From IMG/VR virus record IMGVR_UViG_2609459800_000001: a stretch of DNA of 64,000 bases. One strand, given 5' to 3'. Below the pieces are notes generated by a model. It was not told where the DNA came from. It did no database searches and saw only the letters and a list, made by a program, of their open reading frames with translations. A program made the position numbers and the translations under genes. Positions 31,794 to 48,086 of the stretch are shown here, piece by piece. This stretch comes from a virus (taxonomy: Duplodnaviria; Heunggongvirae; Uroviricota; Caudoviricetes). How positions within the stretch are numbered: the first letter of the stretch is position 1; the number at the start of each line of letters is the position of its first letter.

Positions 31794-31997
31794 TTATAAT
31801 TGAGCCGTGGCGTTAGTCAACTACGAAGACGTGGCCATTACCTACTTAACCAGTTCCGCCAGGGCAGCAGAGTAGGTTTCATCTCGGATGTACCATGCCT
31901 GCATGTTTTCCAGAGAAGCCCGCGAGGTTCCCGGACAGGACTCTGCCATTGCGATAGATTAAATGCAATAACCTAAAAGCGATAACGTGGTGGAAAA

Positions 31998-32635
31998 ATG
32001 TTCATCAGAGCTTATTTAAGGGCATCAACGGAAGATCAGTTTGCCGATCGGGCAAAAGAGATGCTGGGGCAGTTTGTTCAGGAGCGGGGACATAAAATAG
32101 CCAGTTACTACCGGGAGAACATAAGCGGTACAAAACTCGACCGCCCGGAACTGGGACGCTTACTGATGGACAGCCACCGCAATGATATTTTACTGGTCGA
32201 GCAAATTGACCGCCTGACCCGTCTGAGTAACAGTGACTGGATTACGCTGAAAAAGCAGATAGAACAACACGAACTGCGGATTGTCGCCTGGATGTATCCA
32301 CCTCATGGCAGGCGCTGTCAGATAAAGACCCTTCGCAGGCTGACCCAATCACCCGCGCCGTGATAACCGCCATCAATAACATGCTTATCGACCTGATGGC
32401 CGCGATGTCGCATAAGGACTGGCTGAGCCGTCGCCAACGGCAACAACAGGGAATTGAACGGGCTCATACGCTGGGTAAATACCGGGGATAACAGGCCGAT
32501 CAGGAACGGCATCAGAAAGTCCTGTACTACCGGCAGGTCAAGAAACTAAGTATCCATGAAACGGTAGATGCGACAGGGTACAGTCCTTCACAGATATGCC
32601 GCATTCAAGAGAGCCTGAATCGGAATAAAAAGTAG
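31998..32635 (+). pseudogene. Serine recombinase/resolvase (tnpR-like), disrupted
   Basis: The N-terminus MFIRAYLRASTEDQ... has the catalytic Ser motif. There is a -1 frameshift near 32288 (GTCGCC|CTGGAT) and an in-frame TAA at 32489..32491. The C-terminal HTH can be read through to 32635. Confidence 0.75.
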
Positions 32636-32734
32636 CCCTGGCGTTAATGGATTACCTTTCCAGGCTAAGCTCATTGCTCCTGTCAGATACGCAGCCCTGC
32701 CTGTAATAATACAGACTGGGCAATGTGTTGCCAC

Positions 32735-33148
32735 TCAGGCTGACAACTGTCGGAGGATATCCGCTGTATTATAATGAGCCCGTTTTTCTATATATTTCCC
32801 GTCCTTCAGAGTGATCATAAATATCAGAGAAAAGCGCACTTTCCTGCCGCTGGCAGGATGCCCAAGGAATTCACGGGTCTGCACGCCTTCAAAGATAAGA
32901 TAGCAGGCGACTTTATCGTCTCTGGCAAAGATTTCGTGGATACGCATTGTAAATCCCGGAAAAGCATCCATATGGCCTTTTTCCTGTACGATAAACTGCT
33001 CACTGTTCAGCGGTGTATCCACCTGAGAATAGAATTTAAAATCCGGATGGCAGAGGTTTTTCACCTCATCATATTTATTTTCTTCAATCAGACGATAAAA
33101 CTTTTTAACCGTTTTGATATTTTCTTCAACAGACATATTGCACCTCAT
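32735..33148 (-). CDS. SnoaL-like / ester cyclase family protein
   Basis: 137 aa with the NTF2-like pattern (...KKFYRLIEENKYDEV...DFKFY...HMDAFPGF...). Confidence 0.55.
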   Translation of the reverse strand: MRCNMSVEENIKTVKKFYRLIEENKYDEVKNLCHPDFKFYSQVDTPLNSEQFIVQEKGHMDAFPGFTMRIHEIFARDDKVACYLIFEGVQTREFLGHPASGRKVRFSLIFMITLKDGKYIEKRAHYNTADILRQLSA

Positions 33149-34134
33149 TTTTCAGTTTCTTTACCTGCCGGAATATTGCCTGCCGGCGTTCCGTTAAATG
33201 TTTTTCGCCATTCACTGGGACTGACTCCCATCCGCTGCCGGAATATCTGCCGGAAAGTAATGGTGGACTGAAAGCCTGCCAGTTCGGCAACCCGCTCCAC
33301 TGCAATATCTGTACTTTCCAGCAGTTCCTGACTCCGCCGGAGACGCTCTGTGGTGATCCACTCCCAGACCGTCATTCCTGTGGCCGAATGAAAATGGCGT
33401 GTAAGCGTTCTTCGGCTCATGGAGGCTAAATGGGCCAGAGTGTCAATATCATGTGGTAATCCCAGATTTGCGGACAGGTATTCCAGCAGCTGGTTTATGC
33501 GGTTATCGGACGTACTTTTGGGAATAAGCAGTTGCCGGTACTGTGCCTGTCCGCCTTCCCGGTAAGGAGGAGCAACCATCCGGCGGGCTATTTGATTAGC
33601 CGTATATCTGCCCAGGCGTTGCCGGATCACATGGAGACAACAGTCCAGTGCTGCGGCTGTACCGGCTGAGGTGATAATCCGCTCGTCCTCAACATAAAGC
33701 ACGTTCACGTCCAGATGAACCGCCGGGAAAAGCATCTGGAAATCCCGTTCAGCCTCCCAGTGCGTGGCCGCCCGTTTACCATCCAGCAGACCGGTGTAAG
33801 CCAGAACAAAACTCCCCAGGCACAGGCCCACCACCTGAGCTCCATTTTTCCAGGCTGCAACCAGGGCACTGAGCAGAGTTTCAGAAGGCCTTTCATGGAT
33901 GTGTTTCCAGAAAGGAATAATAACGATATCGGCCTCTGCCAGTGCATCAAGCCCGTATTCTGCCCTCATCGCCGTACCTTCAGCAGACCAGATAAGCCCG
34001 GGCTCTTCCGCACATACCCGGCGGCTGAAGAGAGCCTTCCCTTCCAGTATCTCCCCGAACAGGATTAGTGGAACGGAGACATGAAATGTACTGAACCCTT
34101 CGGTGATCACTATAGCGACAGTGATGGTGGACAT
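33145..34134 (-). CDS. GlxA-family transcriptional regulator (DJ-1/PfpI domain + AraC HTH)
   Basis: 329 aa. The N-terminal DJ-1-like domain has GLCLGSFVLA and the C-terminus has an AraC-type double HTH. Confidence 0.75.
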   Translation of the reverse strand: MSTITVAIVITEGFSTFHVSVPLILFGEILEGKALFSRRVCAEEPGLIWSAEGTAMRAEYGLDALAEADIVIIPFWKHIHERPSETLLSALVAAWKNGAQVVGLCLGSFVLAYTGLLDGKRAATHWEAERDFQMLFPAVHLDVNVLYVEDERIITSAGTAAALDCCLHVIRQRLGRYTANQIARRMVAPPYREGGQAQYRQLLIPKSTSDNRINQLLEYLSANLGLPHDIDTLAHLASMSRRTLTRHFHSATGMTVWEWITTERLRRSQELLESTDIAVERVAELAGFQSTITFRQIFRQRMGVSPSEWRKTFNGTPAGNIPAGKETEK

Positions 34135-34149
34135 GCCATGGCCTCCGGG

Positions 34150-34926
34150 TTAAATCGTAACTGATTCACCATCAGCAGGAACGGCAACTGACGCCTGGAT
34201 CTGGTTATCGCGGGCATATTCCAGCAGTTCCTGACGGGTCAGCAGACAGTGGTTTACGGCCTCCATGTGCGTTGCCACAATCAGTGCCTCTGGTACGATA
34301 CGATGGGCTTTCAGGACATCTTCCCTGCCGAAAATAATGGGGCCGAATCCGAGAACATGCGCCCAGCCCGTATTCATAATAACGACGCCAGGATTGAACC
34401 GACGTAAATTATCCTCTACAGCCTTGATCCAGATGGTATCCCCGACCAGATAGAGCGTTTTTTCGGACGGATGCTGGAAGACCACCCCACAGGCATCCCC
34501 AAGGATTGCTGCGAGTTGCGGGTTAGCATAGGCTTCGTCCGAACCATGCTGACAAACGGTTTTAATAAGTGAAATTTCGCCAAATGTGCTTTTGTCAGAC
34601 AGAATAACAAGGTTGCTGAAGCCCTGGGAACGCAGGATCTTTTCATCATGTTCATTCTGAACATAAATCAGTTTATCTTTCGGGATGTGCGCAACAGCCG
34701 CTTCATCCCAGTGGTCAGGGTGTGTGTGGGTGACAATAATGGCATCCACATCCAGCAGTACATCAAGGTCAAAAGGCAGCTCAGTCATCGGGATGCGGAT
34801 ATCTGACCGGGCCGTTCCTTCGAATCCCGGATAGGCTTCTTTTTTCGCAAGCATCGGATCGACAAGAAATTTTTTACCAGCGTAAGAAATGAGTTGTGTG
34901 GCGTTACGTACCTGGATGATCTTCAT
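34150..34926 (-). CDS. MBL-fold metallo-hydrolase
   Basis: 258 aa with the HxHxDH motif (VTHTHPDHW). Confidence 0.75.
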   Translation of the reverse strand: MKIIQVRNATQLISYAGKKFLVDPMLAKKEAYPGFEGTARSDIRIPMTELPFDLDVLLDVDAIIVTHTHPDHWDEAAVAHIPKDKLIYVQNEHDEKILRSQGFSNLVILSDKSTFGEISLIKTVCQHGSDEAYANPQLAAILGDACGVVFQHPSEKTLYLVGDTIWIKAVEDNLRRFNPGVVIMNTGWAHVLGFGPIIFGREDVLKAHRIVPEALIVATHMEAVNHCLLTRQELLEYARDNQIQASVAVPADGESVTI

Positions 34927-35168
34927 TTTAGCAAGTCCTGTATTGGTTAATAACCATCAGAGCCATATCATGATGGCCTAATGTGATAATTATGATTAAA
35001 TCAGGCCTGCCTGCCACTGAAATAATGCCATATTTGGATGATATCAGGCCATTCTTCTGGCTCTCAGGTTTCAGGAATATGTCTGCTGAAAGCGGGTACA
35101 GATCTGACGCATTGAAGGGAAGTATCGTCCTTTAAGGCTTATTGATGTCAGCCAGTACAAAAAATCAT

Positions 35169-35206
35169 CTTAACGTACAATATCTTCCGTTTCCCAAACG
35201 GAGCCC
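35169..35206. repeat. Tn3-family 38-bp terminal inverted repeat
   Basis: The reverse complement is GGGCTCCGTTTGGGAAACGGAAGATATTGTACGTTAAG (GGG...ACGTTAAG). It matches the inner IRs of the 235-bp elements at ~33/38 positions. Confidence 0.8.
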
Positions 35207-37250: not shown

Positions 37251-37499
37251 TCAATCAGCATTTAGTAGCAGAGCATTATCTATGATGATCTGCTCCCATT
37301 CTTCGAATGCCCGGTCGCGGACGCCCTGGGGAACGCTGTTTGTTTTGAAATCGACGACCGTCCGCCATTTTCCGTCAGGACGGTACATGCGCAGAGCTTT
37401 ACTTCCCCCTTCCCTGCGCACCTCAACGTTATGCTTGTCAGCAAACTCTTGTAATGCTCGTAGCGTCCCATGCTTTACTGTGTAGTATCGCTTTTTCAA
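37251..37499 (-). CDS. lxc: C1 co-repressor Lxc
   Basis: 82 aa. MKKRYYTVKHGTLRALQEFADKHNVEV... The size and position match P1 Lxc. Confidence 0.8.
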   Translation of the reverse strand: MKKRYYTVKHGTLRALQEFADKHNVEVRREGGSKALRMYRPDGKWRTVVDFKTNSVPQGVRDRAFEEWEQIIIDNALLLNAD

Positions 37500-37936
37500 G
37501 TTTTATCTCCAGCCTGTGCTAAGGCTTCAACTTCCAAATCGTAAGACTCAAACTCATAGTCCTGGTCGTCAACTTCTTCAGGCACTGGCAGTAAATGCCA
37601 GGCTGAGTATATCTGACCATTATCAAAACGCTCCTGGCTGTAGAGCGTCGCGGCTATGAGTGTTAGCGCCGGGCGGTCATAACGGTAAATTTTGCGAACG
37701 TCACGGTCAACGAGACGACCGAAATTACCATAACCGCGCTCCAGTAATAATTTTTTAATTTCCGGCCAGTATGGACCATAGCTGCGGTACAGGCGGGGAT
37801 TTTTCAGTAATCGCCCGCGTAGCCCTGACAGGAAGAAATCAACGTATTCGTCTTCTGTTTTTCCTAACAACGCTGTACGGAGTACCGCCTCAAGATATGT
37901 TTTATTCGGTTTTATTGTATCAGATAGTGTGACCAT
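37496..37936 (-). CDS. ulx: Ulx (needed for DarB packaging in P1)
   Basis: 146-aa ORF immediately upstream of lxc and downstream of darB, the position of P1 ulx. Confidence 0.6.
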   Translation of the reverse strand: MVTLSDTIKPNKTYLEAVLRTALLGKTEDEYVDFFLSGLRGRLLKNPRLYRSYGPYWPEIKKLLLERGYGNFGRLVDRDVRKIYRYDRPALTLIAATLYSQERFDNGQIYSAWHLLPVPEEVDDQDYEFESYDLEVEALAQAGDKT

Positions 37937-37969
37937 ATTATGCGACGCCCGGCGAACCGGGCGCTCCTG

Positions 37970-40095
37970 TTATGCGTATTGTTGGATGACGGCCAGAACG
38001 TCCGACACGTTGTGTTTTGTCTCGATAATCCACCAGTTGCCCGGGAAATCGCTGTTCTTCGCCTTCGCTGGCACCCAGCGAGCGCCGAATTTTTCCTTGA
38101 TTGCGTCTTTAGCACGGAAAAGAACGCCTTTCATGCCGGACGCCTCCTGAAGCCCAAATACCTCGCCAGCGGCGAATTTTGGTGCGTACATCATCTTCAG
38201 GTCGGCGGTGGATACGCGATAATTCAGACCAAGAGACTGAGCTATGCTGGTGGCATCACCCTGTATTGATGATAACTCTTCTTGTTTCTCGTTTCTGGCG
38301 GCAATTTCTTCCTCCGTGATGTTGCCAAGGGCCAGGTTTATCCGATCAGCGTCGGCCTGTTTCTCTTCATCGGTGCGCCCGGCAAGAACCGTGTTAATTC
38401 TCTGCAATATCTCCACATGATTCTTGCGCATGCTGAGCAATTCCGGCGTAACATCGTTAAGATCCACCAGCCCAAGGATGGCAAGGTCGGAAAACATTGA
38501 TACCAGGTTGTAGGTCATGCGATAGCTGAGTTGGCTATAGGCTGATGGCAACTGCACCGCATCCATTTGATAGGCATCCATAAATTTAGAGCCGTCGTTT
38601 ACGACATCCGCAATTGCCGGTGTGATTTTCCCTGTGGTGGCGGCCTCCCTGATTGCTGTTACCCACGATTGAGTCAGCGCGGCGACTGCATGATTCAGAT
38701 TGGCTTTCCGTTCTGCTGCAATGCGCGCGCTTGCTGCGTCCATTGCCTGCTTGATCTCGTCTTTATTGCTGTAAATGCCAATGGGACCAAACTGTGTTGT
38801 GGTGATCTCATAATCTGACGCCCGGAACTCATTGGTACCGAAAATGGCATTGGTGACCTCAAGTTCAGAATCCCCGTTACGAGTAGCCCCCTGACTTGTT
38901 TTCTCCGGCATTTTTGCGATCGCATCCGCTATTTTCTCCTGAATTGCTTCAGGGGATAGCGTATCTCCGTATGACGCGATTACATCGCTATAATTGGATC
39001 CAAACAGTTCAGTCAGGAATACTTCTGCCAAACGGACCTGGCGGTTATTCCCTTCCGACATCATACCAAGCACCCATTTAGCAATTGACGACTTCAGCGC
39101 GCCGTCACGGCGATCCGGGTAAACCGCATGCTTCAGTGGGTCCGTATAGGTACCAACAAAATCAATGCTATAGCCTGACTCTGTAGTCTGAACGCCGTAT
39201 GAGTCAGTGATTTTGATCATGCCGCGCTGCTGGAAACGGTAGAAATCGTCACAGGAAATGATGTCGTTAATCCCGGCGATGGAGACGCCACCACTGATTT
39301 TCTGCATAACAGCATCTTCATCGGGAGTTACATCCACCTGTTATCCAGCGTCTTCACATCCCAGTTACCCGATTTGGTGCCTTTGAAGGTAAAGATGATC
39401 TCCACGTCTGCGCGCTGGCTGTCGAAGTCCAGCGACTTAATGCGAACGATATCACCGGCACAATCGTAGTATTGGCCTACACGCCATGAGCGATCGCCGA
39501 TAACAAGGAACTCACTCGCATGGTTAACCAGGTCAGGATCAACATCCAGAATGCCTTTATTTATTGCATCCTCCACCAGTGGGCGCAGGCGTTTGATATC
39601 CGTCGCGGCCTTCTGAGTACGGTTCAATAATTTCTCATAGCGGGAGATGGCTTGAGAGATATTAGCCTTGCGCTGAATGGCGCTTTTCAACGACGCGCGA
39701 TACTGTGCTAACAACATACGGTCTGTGTGATGGACACTCCCCCAGCGGGCCTTCCAGTCTGCGTTATCAGCTGCTTTGGCCATTACCGCCTGTTTGAATT
39801 TAGCTACCTCGGCGGTGGTCTTTTCAAATTCCGCTTTGCTTCGCTCTAATTCAGCGGTAAGTACCTCCACATCCTCACCAGCTGCGTGCTGCGCCTTGAT
39901 GTAGTTCTGAAGGTCGATAGTAGCCTGTTCTTTCTGGCGAGCGCGTTGCGCGGCTTTCGCCTTATCCATTTGAACCTGCATCATTGCCAGACGTTCACCG
40001 TCATCCTTCGCGGTATACATCTGCATTTCGATCATATCATTGGCGTCGGCGTTCTCCATTTCTGACTTATCTGAACGGAGGATATCGGAGATCCT
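37970..40095 (-). pseudogene. darB: darB, 3' portion (two overlapping reading frames)
   Basis: ORFs 37970..39337 and 39328..40119 are co-linear and overlap by 10 nt. The upstream one runs into the TIME-like element, so its apparent start lies in transposon DNA. Confidence 0.6.
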
Positions 40096-40330
40096 GGGCT
40101 TCGTTTGGGAAACGTACAATATTGTACGGTTGCGCTATTGCGGTAGGGTGTACTCCAACGCTATACGGTCTTTGGCAGACCTTTAGGGAAATGAGATAAG
40201 CTAAATGCGATAAGAGAAAAGCAATAACTTAAAGGCAATAGCTGATTACGATAAATCAATCAGTTACTTATCAGTATCGATTAAAAAATGCTCCTAACGT
40301 ACAATAATTTCCGTTTCCCAAACCGACCCC
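40096..40330. mobile_element. TIME-like 235-bp non-autonomous Tn3-family element, copy A
   Basis: The 38-bp ends are GGGCTTCGTTTGGGAAACGTACAATATTGTACGGTTGC (outer) and, in inverse orientation, GGGGTCGGTTTGGGAAACGGAAATTATTGTACGTTAGG (inner). There is no coding capacity. Confidence 0.8.
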
Positions 40331-40520
40331 TAATAGCCGGACTACGGACGCGCAATAATTCGCCCCTGACTTTCCAGCAGTTGGTAAGCATGTCCGACGG
40401 TCATGAAGCTCATGCCGCTGCTGGCGACCTGTTCGCGCAGTGACGGCAGACGATCGCCGGGTCGCCAGACGCCAGAGGCGATCTGTTCGCAAAGTTGTTC
40501 AGCCAGACGCTGGTATTTTT
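40331..40520 (-). pseudogene. GntR/MocR-family regulator (YdcR-like), N-terminal wHTH fragment
   Basis: The minus strand reads ...YQRLAEQLCEQIASGVWRPGDRLPSLREQVASSGMSFMTVGHAYQLLESQGRIIARP, then TAG, and is cut by copy A. Confidence 0.65.
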
Positions 40521-40691
40521 TATTCTGGTTTCTCGTCGGTCAATGCAGGTGAGCCTCGCAGTGTATAACAGTGAATAAAATTCACAACGATTTGCAAACT
40601 GTTATGGTTAAATATGTCTGTTCTGTTTCTGCCCCTCATTGCCTCACACGCTTAGAATTGCGCTGAATCAATTTTTAATGCGGAGTCAGGC

Positions 40692-42092
40692 ATGTTTGGT
40701 CTTGATGCGTATCACCTGGCAAGGATCCAGTTCGCCTTTACAGTTTCATTTCACATTATCTTTCCGGCGATCACCATTGGGCTTGCCAGTTATCTGGCGG
40801 TGCTGGAAGGCCTTTGGCTAAAAAGCAAAAATCCGGTCTGGCGCTCGTTGTACCACTTCTGGTCAAAAATATTCGCCGTAAATTTCGGCATGGGCGTGGT
40901 TTCCGGTCTGGTGATGGCCTATCAGTTCGGCACCAACTGGAGCGGTTTTTCGGAATTCGCAGGCAGTATTACCGGGCCGTTGCTTACCTATGAGGTGCTG
41001 ACCGCTTTCTTCCTTGAAGCCGGATTCCTCGGGGTGATGCTGTTTGGCTGGAATAAAGTCGGTCCGGGTTTGCATTTCTTCTCAACCTGCATGGTGGCGC
41101 TTGGCACCCTCATTTCCACCTTCTGGATCCTGGCGTCTAACAGTTGGATGCAAACGCCGCAGGGGTTTGAGATCGTCAACGGCCAGGTTGTGCCCGTGGA
41201 CTGGTTCGCCGTTATCTTCAATCCTTCGTTCCCTTATCGGCTGCTGCATATGTCCGTCGCCGCATTTCTCAGTAGCGCGCTGTTTGTCGGCGCTTCGGCA
41301 GCCTGGCATCTGCTGCGCGGCAACGCAACGCCAGCCATTCGCACGATGTTTTCCATGGCGTTGTGGATGACGCTTATTGTCGCGCCGGTGCAGGCGTTAA
41401 TCGGCGATATGCATGGGCTGAACACCCTGAAACATCAGCCAGCCAAAATCGCCGCGATTGAAGGTCACTGGGAAAACCCGCCGGGTGAGCCCACGCCGCT
41501 GCTGCTGTTTGGCTGGCCGGATATGGAACAGGAACGCACCCGCTATGGACTGGCGATCCCGGCGCTGGGAAGCCTGATCCTGACGCACAGTCTGGATAAA
41601 CAGGTTCCGGCGCTAAAAGAATTCGCCAAAGAGGATCGCCCTCACTCGACGATCGTGTTCTGGTCGTTTCGCATCATGGCCGGCCTGGGCATGTTAATGA
41701 TCCTGCTAGGGCTCTGTGCGCTCTGGCTGCGCTACAGGCAGCGCCTCTACACCTCGCGCCCGTTCCTGCGCTTTGCGCTATGGATGGGACCCTCGGGGCT
41801 CATCGCCATTCTCGCGGGCTGGGTGACCACTGAGGTCGGACGCCAGCCGTGGGTGGTGTACGGTTTACAGCGTACTGCCGACGCGGTGTCGGCCCACGGC
41901 GATTTACATATGAGCATTTCGTTGCTCGCTTTCTTTGTTGTCTACAGCTCAGTCTTTGGCGTCGGCTACAGCTATATGATTCGCCTGATCCGCAAAGGCC
42001 CGCTGGAAGATGATTCCGCGCCGCCGCCGGGCACACCCGCCAGGCCGCTTTCCGCCGCCGTCCTCGATTCTCAACATAAGGCACATCGCTAA
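40692..42092 (+). CDS. cydA: Cytochrome bd-type ubiquinol oxidase subunit I (short-Q-loop, CioA-like)
   Basis: 466 aa. ...ARIQFAFTVSFHIIFPAITIGLA...GWVTTEVGRQPWVVYG... are hallmark CydA motifs. It is shorter than E. coli CydA/AppC. Confidence 0.9.
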   Translation: MFGLDAYHLARIQFAFTVSFHIIFPAITIGLASYLAVLEGLWLKSKNPVWRSLYHFWSKIFAVNFGMGVVSGLVMAYQFGTNWSGFSEFAGSITGPLLTYEVLTAFFLEAGFLGVMLFGWNKVGPGLHFFSTCMVALGTLISTFWILASNSWMQTPQGFEIVNGQVVPVDWFAVIFNPSFPYRLLHMSVAAFLSSALFVGASAAWHLLRGNATPAIRTMFSMALWMTLIVAPVQALIGDMHGLNTLKHQPAKIAAIEGHWENPPGEPTPLLLFGWPDMEQERTRYGLAIPALGSLILTHSLDKQVPALKEFAKEDRPHSTIVFWSFRIMAGLGMLMILLGLCALWLRYRQRLYTSRPFLRFALWMGPSGLIAILAGWVTTEVGRQPWVVYGLQRTADAVSAHGDLHMSISLLAFFVVYSSVFGVGYSYMIRLIRKGPLEDDSAPPPGTPARPLSAAVLDSQHKAHR

Positions 42093-43102
42093 TGGGTATT
42101 GATTTATCGGTTATCTGGTTTGTGATCATCGTTTTCGCCACGCTAATGTATATCGTGATGGATGGATTCGATTTGGGTATTGGCATTCTGTTTCCTGTCA
42201 CACGAAACGCAGAGGATCGTGATGTGATGGTCAATAGCGTCGCGCCGGTGTGGGACGGTAATGAAACCTGGCTGGTGCTGGGCGGCGCGGGGCTGTTTGG
42301 GGCTTTCCCGATGGCCTATGCGGTTATTATCGATGCGCTGACCATTCCGTTGACGCTGATGCTGATCGGACTGATTTTTCGCGGCGTGGCCTTCGAGTTT
42401 CGCTTCAAGGCCACGCCAGCCCACCGCCCATTTTGGGACCATGCTTTTCTCGGCGGGTCGATTCTGGCTACCTTCGCCCAAGGGATCGTGGTTGGCGCAG
42501 TGATCAACGGTTTCCCGGTGACCGGTCGCAGCTACAGCGGCGGGCCGTTCGACTGGTTAACCCCCTTCACTCTGTTCTGTGGCGTCGGACTGGTCGTTGC
42601 CTATGCGCTCTTAGGCGCAACCTGGCTGGTGATGAAAAGCGAAAATCCGCTTCAGGATAAAATGCGCAGCGTCGCGAAAAAACTGCTGCTGGCCCTGCTG
42701 TTGTCAATTGCGATAATCAGCCTCTGGACACCGTTAGCGCATCCGGCGATCGCCGACCGTTGGTTTACGCTTCCCAACCTGGGCTATCTGCTGCCGGTTC
42801 CGGTGCTGGTGATCGCGTTCAGCGTCTGGTTATGGCGCACACTGGGTCGTCCGGAAAACCACACGTTTCCGTTTGTGCTGACGCTCGGGCTAATCTTCCT
42901 TGGTTTCAGCGGCCTGGGCATCAGTATCTGGCCGCACATTATTCCGCCTTCGGTTACCCTCTGGCAGGCAGCCGCCCCCGCCCAGAGTCAGGGGTTTATG
43001 CTGGTCGGTGCGCTGCTCATCATTCCGGTGATTTTGGTGTACACCTTCTGGAGTTACTATGTGTTTCGCGGCAAAGTGCAACATGGCGAGGGGTATCACT
43101 GA
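42092..43102 (+). CDS. cydB: Cytochrome bd-type ubiquinol oxidase subunit II (CioB-like)
   Basis: 336 aa with a TAATG overlap with subunit I. It has the MDGFDLGIGIL...WDGNETWLV motif. Confidence 0.9.
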   Translation: MGIDLSVIWFVIIVFATLMYIVMDGFDLGIGILFPVTRNAEDRDVMVNSVAPVWDGNETWLVLGGAGLFGAFPMAYAVIIDALTIPLTLMLIGLIFRGVAFEFRFKATPAHRPFWDHAFLGGSILATFAQGIVVGAVINGFPVTGRSYSGGPFDWLTPFTLFCGVGLVVAYALLGATWLVMKSENPLQDKMRSVAKKLLLALLLSIAIISLWTPLAHPAIADRWFTLPNLGYLLPVPVLVIAFSVWLWRTLGRPENHTFPFVLTLGLIFLGFSGLGISIWPHIIPPSVTLWQAAAPAQSQGFMLVGALLIIPVILVYTFWSYYVFRGKVQHGEGYH

Positions 43103-43230
43103 TGCAACATTCTCTCTGGAAACGCCTGATGTGGCTGGTCATCCTTTGGGGCGGCAGCGTGTTGGCGCTGGCGGCGGTGGGCATGTTTTTTCGCCTGCTC
43201 ATGACTGCGGCGGGGTTTAAAGCGCATTAA
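43102..43230 (+). CDS. Small membrane protein (DUF2474-like) downstream of cydB
   Basis: MQHSLWKRLMWLVILWGGSVLALAAVGMFFRLLMTAAGFKAH (42 aa). The ATG overlaps the cydB stop. It corresponds to the last 42 codons of track ORF 42760..43230. Confidence 0.55.
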   Translation: MQHSLWKRLMWLVILWGGSVLALAAVGMFFRLLMTAAGFKAH

Positions 43231-43334
43231 GCGGACACCTCGCCGGATGTCGGCTTTGGGCCAGGCGTTAACCGGCGGAAATAAATACCAACACAAAGGC
43301 CCGGTAAACGCCACCGGGCTGATGTCGCAAAGGA

Positions 43335-43748
43335 TTAAGGTTTACGCTTCGGCAGCGTTTTCATCAGATCTTCCGGACTGACGGAACCCACCACGCTGCC
43401 CGGCAGCGGCATTTTAAGAATGTGATCTTCAATCTTGCCGATAACGTGCATTTCACACGGGCGACAGCCAAATTTCAGCGTCAGCACCTCATCACCGTTG
43501 ACCAGTTGCATTGGCGTCGCTTTCCAGCTTTTGATGTTACCTTTCGCCTGTTTCGGGCAAAGATTAAAGGCAAAACGCAGGCAATGCTTGGTGATCATCA
43601 CAGGCACATCGCCCTTTTCTTGATGCGCTTCATACGCCGCGTCGATCAACTGTACGCCATAACAATGGTAGAACTCACGCGCCTTCTGGTTATAGACGTT
43701 TGCCAGAAAACTCAGATGCGTCTGCGGGTAGACCGGCGCGGGATCGGA
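43335..43748 (-). pseudogene. U32-family peptidase (YdcP-like), C-terminal fragment
   Basis: The minus strand reads ...LSFLANVYNQKAREFYHCYGVQLIDAAYEAHQEKGDVPVMITKHCLR...KRKP. The 5' part is cut off by copy B. Confidence 0.6.
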
Positions 43749-43983
43749 GGGGTCGGTTTGGGAAACGGAAATTATTGTACGTTAGGAGCATTTTTTAATC
43801 GATACTGATAAGTAACTGATTGATTTATCGTAATCAGCTATTGCCTTTAAGTTATTGCTTTTCTCTTATCGCATTTAGCTTATCTCATTTCCCTAAAGGT
43901 CTGCCAAAGACCGTATAGCGTTGGAGTACACCCTACCGCAATAGCGCAACCGTACAATATTGTACGTTTCCCAAACGCAGCCC
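43749..43983. mobile_element. TIME-like 235-bp element, copy B (inverted relative to copy A)
   Basis: By eye, its reverse complement is identical to copy A except for one base (6th position, G vs T). Confidence 0.8.
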
Positions 43984-44991
43984 AGGTACGCGTTTTTAAT
44001 TGCCATATCCCGCGCCGATTGCGCCACCGCGCTGGTGGGCAGATAGGCCAGTTGTGACGCTTCGCGACCATTTTTATAGCTATTGCGGTAGTTGTGACCT
44101 TCGTCGGCGATCACACTATCGAAGCCCATATCCTCAAAGTACGGATACTTCTCTGCTTTTTCGGTGCCGGTATCTGAATACTCCGACAATACCCGGCGAC
44201 GCGCGGCCTCTTTGCGGTGGGAGTCGGAGTCCATTGCGCTGGCTACGCGCCCGGCAGCAACGAAGTCATAAAGCATATCCTGTGCATGCTCATCTACGGT
44301 GTCATCACGTAGCGGAATGCGGGCGTATTGTTCTTTGGTAAACACGACTGCACGGTAATTTGAGTGCGGGATTGCATTCATACGTGCCGTGATAGTGGCT
44401 TCATCTGCCAGTTTAAGGGCATCGCGCATAACTGGAGTGCCATCAGTACCAAGAACAGGTTTACCGTTCTCATCGAGCACCGGCACCTGGCGAATCTGAT
44501 CGCCATCCATCAGCACATCAAGACCGACAAACAGGTAGTTACTGAATGCCTCTTCACTCAGGAACTCTTTTGCTTCGTAATACCAGTTTTCCAGCACTGA
44601 TTTATATTGTCTCATTAAAAACGCCGGTGCCCGCCGATGGTTCCAGAGTGTTACCTACGTCCGCGCCATAGAGGTTCATGATCTCCCAGACGCCTTCAGC
44701 GATAGGCTTTGGTGTGTAATATTCGGAGACGGACCCGCCAATGCCGCCTTCGCCGGTGTACCCAGCCAGGATCTGGCGCTGTTCATCTGTCAGTGTCGCG
44801 CCATCCACCAGCGAATTAAGCAAATCTATCGCCTTCTGATTCGCCTCCCGGCGCAGCCGGTCATAGCTTTTGCCTTCCACCTTTTCCACGCCGTATCTAA
44901 TCGGCGCTCGATGAGATGTTATTGCCCTAATGTATTTCAATATTTCGCTGACACTTGAACAGCGAAACACCCCCATAGATAGCTTGTTCAT
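43984..44991 (-). pseudogene. darB: darB, 5' portion (methyltransferase and start of helicase region), frameshifted
   Basis: 44602..44991 ends with the SAM-MTase motif I LEPSAGTGVF. 43893..44615 carries the helicase motif DEGHNYRN. The two frames overlap by 14 nt, and the reading frame runs into copy B. Confidence 0.7.
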
Positions 44992-45001
44992 TGGTAATCC
45001 T

Positions 45002-45023
45002 TAACAAGTGATTAGTGTTAAAT
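45002..45023 (+). promoter_or_regulatory. Candidate late promoter of prt-pro (AACAAGTGATT-N5-TAAATT)
   Basis: Shared late-motif architecture, about 45 nt upstream of the prt start. Confidence 0.55.
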
Positions 45024-45053
45024 TCCGTTCAAACACGATGCGAATTATTCTAA

Positions 45054-47787
<2,734 letters not shown>

Positions 47788-47798
47788 CCACGAAAAAT

Positions 47799-47820
47799 AA
47801 CCCCGGCGGATGCCGGGGTT
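47799..47820. terminator. Bidirectional terminator
   Basis: AACCCCGGC-ggat-GCCGGGGTT lies between the convergent pro and lyz-side genes. Confidence 0.8.
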
Positions 47821-47831
47821 CTCGTTAACTA

Positions 47832-48086
47832 TTATCGCCTTCGCCTGCGTGCCATATATTTGCGCACCGCGCGGCGTGGACAATCTGAAGCGGTTTCTTT
47901 CTGCTGCATCAATCTTGCAGCCATGCTCAAAAATGTCAGGCACAGCCGAAGCCCGGCATACAATAGCGGTTCCAGTGGCCACGTCTCATTGAGCACATAT
48001 ACCGCCATGAAAATCGAGTCGAAAACTATCGCCGCCAGCGATAACTTCATTGTCGAAAGTCGGCGGAGCTGCCGGAGTTTATTCAT
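47832..48086 (-). CDS. Small membrane protein downstream of lyz
   Basis: 84 aa with two hydrophobic segments and a basic tail (RRRRR). Its start overlaps the lyz stop. Confidence 0.5.
   Translation of the reverse strand: MNKLRQLRRLSTMKLSLAAIVFDSIFMAVYVLNETWPLEPLLYAGLRLCLTFLSMAARLMQQKETASDCPRRAVRKYMARRRRR

Follow-up and report, generated by a model that had tools for sequence, protein, structure and literature searches.

The stretch of DNA analysed here (64,000 nucleotides, IMG/VR record IMGVR_UViG_2609459800_000001, Caudoviricetes; hereafter the window) contains the darB gene of a P1-like (IncY) phage-plasmid, in which a 3,888-bp block takes the place of part of the gene. The block consists of two 235-bp units in inverted orientation and a 3.4-kb cargo between their inner ends, with an operon for a cytochrome bd-type quinol oxidase lying between the remnants of a regulator gene and a peptidase gene (Table 1). 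We regard this block as very probably a composite of the TIME-COMP type, in which two miniature inverted-repeat elements derived from Tn3 (TIMEs) of the MITESen1 family surround an oxidase segment captured from a longer block.

Table 1. Features of the composite and of the darB region in the window, with the alignment to P1 (NC_005856). IR, inverted repeat; PLP, pyridoxal phosphate.
Feature	Position in window	Strand	Details
P1 alignment	37253-40094		P1 9752-12594
darB 3' remnant	37970..40094	-	up to P1 12594
Left TIME	40096..40330	+	outer to inner; outer IR 40096-40133, inner IR 40293-40330
MocR/GntR-type PLP-dependent regulator, 5' remnant	40331..40492	-	about 54 codons; cut by left TIME
Cytochrome bd-type quinol oxidase subunit I, short form	40692..42092	+	466 aa; Pfam Cyt_bd_oxida_I, E = 2.9e-169
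Cytochrome bd-type oxidase subunit II	42092..43102	+	336 aa; Pfam Cyt_bd_oxida_II, E = 1.5e-101; TIGR00203 cydB
DUF2474 protein	43102..43230	+	42 aa; Pfam DUF2474
U32-family peptidase (DUF3656), 3' remnant	43335..43748	-	137 codons; cut by right TIME
Right TIME, inverted	43749..43983	-	inner IR 43749-43786, outer IR 43946-43983; family-typical G at position 6
P1 alignment	43983-44604		P1 13961-14582
darB internal fragment	43984..44604	-	P1 13961/13962-14582
Second darB deletion junction	44605..44606	.	2-nt filler TA
P1 alignment	44607-47999		P1 16852-20245
darB 5' remnant	44607..44991	-	P1 16852-17236

Comparison of the two units revealed that they are reverse complements of each other with a single mismatch at unit position 6, where the left copy has T and the right copy has G; a 235-bp repeat of this fidelity is far beyond chance. 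The T of the left copy is derived, the outer tip GGGCTGCG being the norm for the element. Each extremity of each unit carries a 38-bp Tn3-type end, the two ends within one unit match at 29 of 38 positions, and no open reading frame (ORF) of at least 60 aa lies wholly within either unit. Each unit is therefore built as a TIME, being short (in the class of about 50–500 bp), devoid of a transposase gene and bounded by terminal IRs of approximately 38 bp of Tn3 type, and the two copies bracket a segment with outward-facing terminal IRs at both extremities, which is the architecture of a TIME-COMP. The initial annotation had read the locus as two inverted, non-coding 235-bp units with Tn3-type ends, and its coordinates, its single mismatch and its 38-bp end sequences proved exact. 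A repeat finder returned slightly longer arms (40093–40331 and 43748–43986, 239 nt), which extend by 3 bp outward (CCT/AGG) and by 1 bp inward. The outward extension is flanking sequence outside the element, made up of native P1 sequence (CC, AGG) except for the foreign T; it was dropped on this ground as a sign of a larger duplicated unit and is probably a coincidence. The hexamer CTTCCT precedes two unrelated copies of the element (L086 4534 and L096 2857), and in the window the copies follow on ..TCCT and ..ACCT, a resemblance that could reflect either chance or a target or flank preference.

Alignment of the unit with the 256-bp MITESen1 extended from end to end in the same orientation, with 170 of 257 columns identical (66%), and alignments with IS101, IMU and TIME244 stayed at background level, indicating that the unit is a distinct, diverged member of the MITESen1 family and not MITESen1 itself. 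Members of the element family occur in 1,838 PLSDB records. Among 5,426 complete E. coli genomes, 359 contain the family, and 671 of its 676 places there are plasmid-borne. In the annotations examined (PLSDB gene tables and RefSeq), the units are unmarked as features, and one RefSeq record gives 'helicase' under a unit. Perfect 5-bp target duplications flank the copies in CP057769 (IncFII, AATAA/AATAA) and CP101950 (IncI2, AAAAA/AAAAA), and remoter relatives with the same outer end are flanked by duplications of TATCA and TATATA. The reconstructed empty site of the CP057769 copy is uninterrupted in five other plasmids (100% over 400 bp), and the two carrier plasmids match it as two pieces spanning 640 bp. 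Together, the duplications and the matching empty site demonstrate that the unit is a TIME that has moved in the past, and they confirm its boundaries independently of the window.

In the family alignment, blocks at unit positions of about 50–200 (GGGTGTACTCC..GCTATACGG, GGATAACCTAAATGC(G/A)ATA, AACTTAAA(A/G)GCGATA, and GGTTAAA(T/A)AATG) are kept among members otherwise 66–80% alike, in a sample biased by retrieval through the exact outer-end pattern; these blocks may be binding sites for a recombinase or an accessory protein. Short partial matches to the unit on F-type, Shigella, and IncK plasmids were set aside as IR remnants and not autonomous elements. Two F-type plasmids carry a 38-bp IR (L085 8015–8052 and L088 8015–8052) that matches the TIME ends at 34 of 38 positions; in L088, it lies directly after a 'recombinase family protein' gene that is next to ccdAB. 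Its appearance is that of a relict end from a related transposon beside a resolvase gene.

Analysis of the cargo indicated that the oxidase domains are full length and adjacent (PF01654 1–418/418 and PF02322 1–302/302). Against the NCBIfam equivalogs for the E. coli bd-I (CydAB) and bd-II (AppCB) oxidases, subunit I scored 291 vs a cut-off of 1025 and 264 vs 968, each in two stretches, and its 466 residues compare with 514 and 522 for the solved E. coli subunits, a difference of about 50 residues. By sequence, the oxidase belongs to a third, short type that is neither bd-I nor bd-II. One depositor named subunit II 'cyanide insensitive', as an annotation label rather than a test result. The oxidase genes and the DUF2474 gene follow the same order in Citrobacter chromosomes and IncF plasmids. 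Upstream, a 200-bp intergenic region separates the operon from the regulator remnant and contains a promoter-like site (40581–40608) recognised by consensus match only. The regulator remnant falls into MocR-like families in NCBIfam and is a partial GntR regulator in RefSeq, while the peptidase remnant is annotated as a partial collagenase-like protease or peptidase U32. Comparison with an IncF locus (L002) revealed a full 469-aa regulator gene, whose match to the window starts exactly at 40331, and a peptidase ORF that is longer, with at least 407 codons, and whose match ends at 43748, so that both outermost cargo genes are cut exactly at the elements, as had been supposed from the window itself.

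The cargo occurs on no E. coli chromosome and on 27 plasmids in the complete-genome set. IncF plasmids, such as pEC213_1-OXA-181, carry a longer TIME-free block that is 99.6% identical, includes the full regulator gene and matches the window from one TIME inner tip exactly to the other. The IncFII block is syntenic with the chromosomes of Citrobacter and related genera at only about 80–83% DNA identity, indicating that the operon is ultimately chromosomal and derives from an unsampled relative of Citrobacter absent from the collection. The best protein match of subunit I (96%) is in C. amalonaticus, which was rejected as the native donor chromosome since the nucleotide identity is only 80–83%; exact-protein look-ups for a donor returned only P1-like and IncFII contexts and no donor species. 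The initial annotation had the cargo cut out of a chromosome by the elements, and this holds for its ultimate origin, but in E. coli the cargo is confined to plasmids, and an IncFII plasmid is a more probable immediate source of the segment taken by the TIMEs than a chromosome. On a 466-kb contig (WNTS01000004.1, L136), the TIME-free oxidase block and an IncFII repA lie near cobU/cobS/cobT-type genes, an arrangement that suggests an integrated IncF plasmid or a misassembly.

The window flanks are collinear with P1 darB at 97–98.5% identity, which identifies the site as darB, in agreement with the first description of the locus. The composite substitutes for 1,366 bp of the gene, and a separate 2,269-bp deletion with a TA filler lies 620 bp to its right; the two deletions together remove 54% of darB, which the composite is predicted to inactivate. 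The 2,269-bp deletion is common to all relatives examined across 44604–44607 (L001, L091, L110, L124, L129, L130, and L131). At the left junction, P1, P7, SJ46, vB_EcoM-673R5, and MH422554 all read GGAGATCC followed directly by AGCC, with the break falling between them, and base 40095 (T) of the window, a single untemplated base, matches neither P1 nor the element. At the right junction, the sequence is native P1 from (C)AGGTACG onward. Both TIME tips are kept to the base at these junctions.

Both darB junctions are also present in at least six other assemblies: CP049847 (pEcoUTI1e, from a uropathogenic isolate, Mexico), JBRNIL010000002 (pMB06172, from seawater, Galapagos), and the draft assemblies JBTLMR010000013, ABYVBL010000022, JALJUA010000018, and JBTLMT010000032. 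The backbones of the assemblies that share the junctions are 98.6–99.5% identical to the window. A flipped isomer, with the cargo inverted between the TIMEs, was found on the metagenome contig ERZ1026890.270 and in DADDCI010000017, and JBGOIP010000024 is flipped and has in addition lost the darB sequence past 44459. The commonest form, known in PLSDB from about 28 plasmids of E. coli, Shigella, and Salmonella 4,[5],12:i:-, has a single TIME and corresponds to the flipped isomer after a deletion at a 9-bp microhomology (TCGCCGGGT), which took, besides one TIME, 123 bp of cargo (40331–40453) and 207 bp of darB. Because the missing 123 bp are shared with the native IncF block, the ancestral form is the one with two TIMEs; the one-TIME form was considered as the ancestor and rejected on the same evidence, as it is without a segment common to the window and the IncF plasmids. 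Blocks of the assembly collection that list exactly this subunit I protein number 1,955, indicating that the lineage is common. Every TIME-associated copy of the cargo lies at the same darB site, and the other copies lie in TIME-free IncF contexts.

Related P1-like plasmids carry a truncated Tn3-family tnpA that ends beside a MITESen1-type IR, and the same tnpA is complete on pAPEC-O2-211A-ColV (NZ_CP030791.1, L117 1940–8333; TnpA WP_000124023.1). The transposon on this plasmid spans 6,394 bp, with perfect 38-bp IRs (GGGGTCAGTTTGGATATCGAAAATTATTGTACGTTAAG), a 5-bp duplication of ATAAT and a 995-aa TnpA with DDE_Tnp_Tn3 and DUF4158 domains (NCBIfam transpos_Tn3, 1,129 bits). Its IR matches the inner IR of the TIME at 32 of 38 positions and the outer IR at 25 of 38. 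The tnpA of this transposon runs into the IR and ends with ...KNSLNVQ*, while the inner end of the left TIME retains a tnpA tail, ...KNAPNVQ*, in the same register, indicating that the TIME inner end is the tnpA-proximal end of an ancestral transposon of the same clade. Over its left 140 bp, the TIME has homology with the end of another derivative (NZ_CP056718.1), and these 140 bp have a motif in common with the region upstream of tnpA. We infer that the TIME was moved by a transposase of the ColV type, which is at present a candidate partner.

Further Tn3-type relics were observed. In a Salmonella P1-like plasmid (L004 17369–19800), a Tn1721 end (GGGGGAACCGCAGAATTCGGAAAAAATCGTACGCTAAG) truncates the MITESen1-type Tn3-family tnpA of the one-TIME plasmids at about codon 227, so that, within the examined 32 kb, these plasmids also have no intact cognate transposase. 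A second Tn3-type relic of about 3.3 kb occupies 31841–35206 of the window and is present in pMB06172 and absent from pEcoUTI1e. It starts with a 34-aa TnpA fragment (31848–31949) and a stretch 92% identical to the tnpA-upstream region of the ColV transposon, carries genes for an ester cyclase, a GlxA/AraC-type regulator and an MBL-fold (metallo-beta-lactamase-fold) hydrolase, and ends in a solo IR (35169–35206, GGGCTCCGTTTGGGAAACGGAAGATATTGTACGTTAAG) that matches the TIME inner IR at 33 of 38 positions. A remnant of the tnpA tail lies in the solo IR, which also truncates the P1 gene ref.

Comparison with known systems placed the locus among the described TIME composites. MITESen1 of ISfinder resembles the unit in its IR motifs (GGGGTC.GTTTGG...ATTATTGTACG), its internal blocks, its occurrence on Enterobacteriaceae plasmids and its formation of composites; it differs in sequence (66% identity) and in length (by 21 bp), and its tips read GGGG, whereas one tip of the unit reads GGGC. 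The TIME-COMPs bounded by MITESen1 consist of direct copies around qnrS1, floR or qnrD1, with IncX1 or repE(pEh60-7)-type plasmids as hosts, and some of them also are without direct repeats (Gomi & Yano 2026, PMC13367494); the darB composite, in contrast, has inverted copies, a respiratory oxidase as cargo and a P1-like phage-plasmid as replicon. The tet(A) TIME-COMP bounded by TIME244 (MITEEc2) occurs in both internal orientations, in 52 vs 62 replicons (PMC13367494). The darB composite is like it in having inverted TIME copies about 3.4 kb apart and both isomers in nature. TIME244 is a member of the Tn21 subgroup in which a res site can be recognised, and it resembles the unit only at background level, and the tet(A) composite shows 5-bp direct repeats at three different sites and documented transposition as a unit, whereas the darB composite shows neither. 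The blaGES-5 composite bounded by IMU likewise has inverted copies and no flanking direct repeats in its natural plasmid, and it was transposed experimentally with a Tn3-family transposase supplied in trans (Poirel 2009, via PMC13367494); the darB composite is known from sequence alone. The transposon of pAPEC-O2-211A-ColV shares with the TIME the similarity of the inner IR, the tnpA tail running into the IR and the motif upstream of tnpA, and it differs from it in its size of 6.4 kb, its own transposase, its genes for an arsR-type regulator and a permease, and the weak match of the outer IR. Full-text literature searches (with the IR strings, MITESen1, and P1-like or phage-plasmid combined with darB, cytochrome bd or miniature inverted repeats) returned no description of the structure, and an apparent darB match in PMC9600943 was an author name. 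The initial annotation was aware of no TIME-type composite described on a P1-like phage-plasmid, which stands for the literature searched; the same structure was already present in public assemblies, so that it is undescribed rather than unique.

These results are consistent with a stepwise origin of the composite. Insertions of the TIME into the flanking regulator and peptidase genes would have excised the 3.4-kb segment from the longer block, and the composite, or one of its TIMEs, may then have been mobilised in trans by a Tn3-family transposase of the pAPEC-O2-211A-ColV transposon clade. In the course we favour, the composite would have inserted into darB and then undergone an adjacent deletion at one outer tip, where a transposase-made break followed by imprecise joining would have removed the target duplication together with 1.37 kb of darB. 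The retention of both tips to the base points to a break made by a transposase, and the extra base at 40095 and the nearby filler-containing deletion point to imprecise joining. Several observations weigh against an origin by transposition of the composite. No 5-bp direct repeat flanks it (ATCCT on the left and AGGTA on the right, as first noted), and with the foreign T at 40095 this is not a clean transposition. No intact Tn3-family transposase is present in the window, where tblastn found only the 34-residue fragment at 31848–31949, in keeping with the earlier reading, and both tips of the composite are, by sequence, ends of the GGGC type, which match the IR of the candidate transposon at only 25 of 38 positions. 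Neither a second composite site nor a TIME-flanked precursor of the operon on an IncF plasmid or a chromosome was found in PLSDB, the complete E. coli genomes, a single metagenome scan or exact-protein look-ups, and movement of the composite as a unit is unproven.

Part of this evidence would also suit a course without any movement of the composite as a unit. One TIME, already present in darB or else in the donor, would have made a cointegrate of the P1-like plasmid with a plasmid carrying the oxidase block, and later inversion and deletion mediated by TIMEs would have trimmed the donor sequence to 3.4 kb and removed 1.37 kb of darB. Such a course would agree with the lack of a target duplication, with the single known site of the composite and with the failure to see a TIME-flanked precursor on IncF plasmids; the inner flank TAATA is a typical AT-rich target of Tn3-type elements, and rearrangement at the TIMEs is demonstrably frequent, as the flipped and decayed forms testify. 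However, it requires more steps, no P1-like record was seen with a solo TIME at either junction and darB otherwise intact, and the flanks form no reverse-complement target pair (inner TAATA vs outer AGGTA; inner TCGGA vs outer ATCCT). The absence of the expected pair also led us to reject intramolecular transposition of the inversion type as the source of the inverted arrangement. We consider formation through a cointegrate unlikely, while giving it more weight than the remaining alternatives.

A course with two solo TIMEs, which would have hit darB independently and in inverted orientation before homologous recombination in both with a donor TIME-COMP exchanged the 1.37 kb of darB for the cargo, explains the absence of a shared direct repeat, as each junction would keep half of a different duplication, and recombination between the 235-bp copies clearly occurs. 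It is nevertheless highly improbable: native P1 sequence would then be expected in the left flank as far as the element, yet this flank contains the foreign T; it would take two separate, independent hits in 1.4 kb as well as a donor composite that was not observed; and darB with solo TIMEs was not found. The suggestions that the units are conserved parts of darB, or that the junctions are assembly chimeras, are already refuted and retain practically no weight. In P1, P7, SJ46, vB_EcoM-673R5, and MH422554, darB is continuous without the unit sequence, and more than 1,800 unrelated plasmids carry the unit, for which target duplications and an empty site are known; identical junctions recur in at least six other independent assemblies, and the flipped isomer lies on a metagenome contig. 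Insertion of a TIME composite followed by adjacent deletion thus stays the preferred reading, and the interpretation given in the initial annotation is supported as essentially right.

The composite is a real, undescribed example of a known composite type and would not surprise a specialist. TIME composites in the 2026 survey of Enterobacteriaceae were sought and reported for antibiotic-resistance genes (PMC13367494); the darB composite has a core-metabolism operon as its cargo, and its replicon doubles as a phage. The intact, flipped, intermediate, and one-copy forms in public assemblies show how such composites rearrange and decay, and catalogues of TIMEs and of miniature transposable elements with inverted repeats (MITEs) can take up the 235-bp unit together with its ends. 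With darB lost, the virions of this lineage are predicted to be open to type I restriction. The oxidase would be expressed from its own predicted promoter and provide the host with an extra terminal oxidase; it is a candidate fitness factor. We put forward only tentatively that a lineage of P1-like phage-plasmids may use an invertible cassette, bracketed by TIMEs, to transfer an additional terminal oxidase in working order among E. coli, Shigella, and Salmonella. This oxidase, of a short bd type, would possibly tolerate sulfide, cyanide or nitric oxide, its expression might also be affected by orientation switching between the two TIMEs, and the cassette, as a phage-borne auxiliary respiratory gene, might contribute to the abundance of the lineage in public assemblies.

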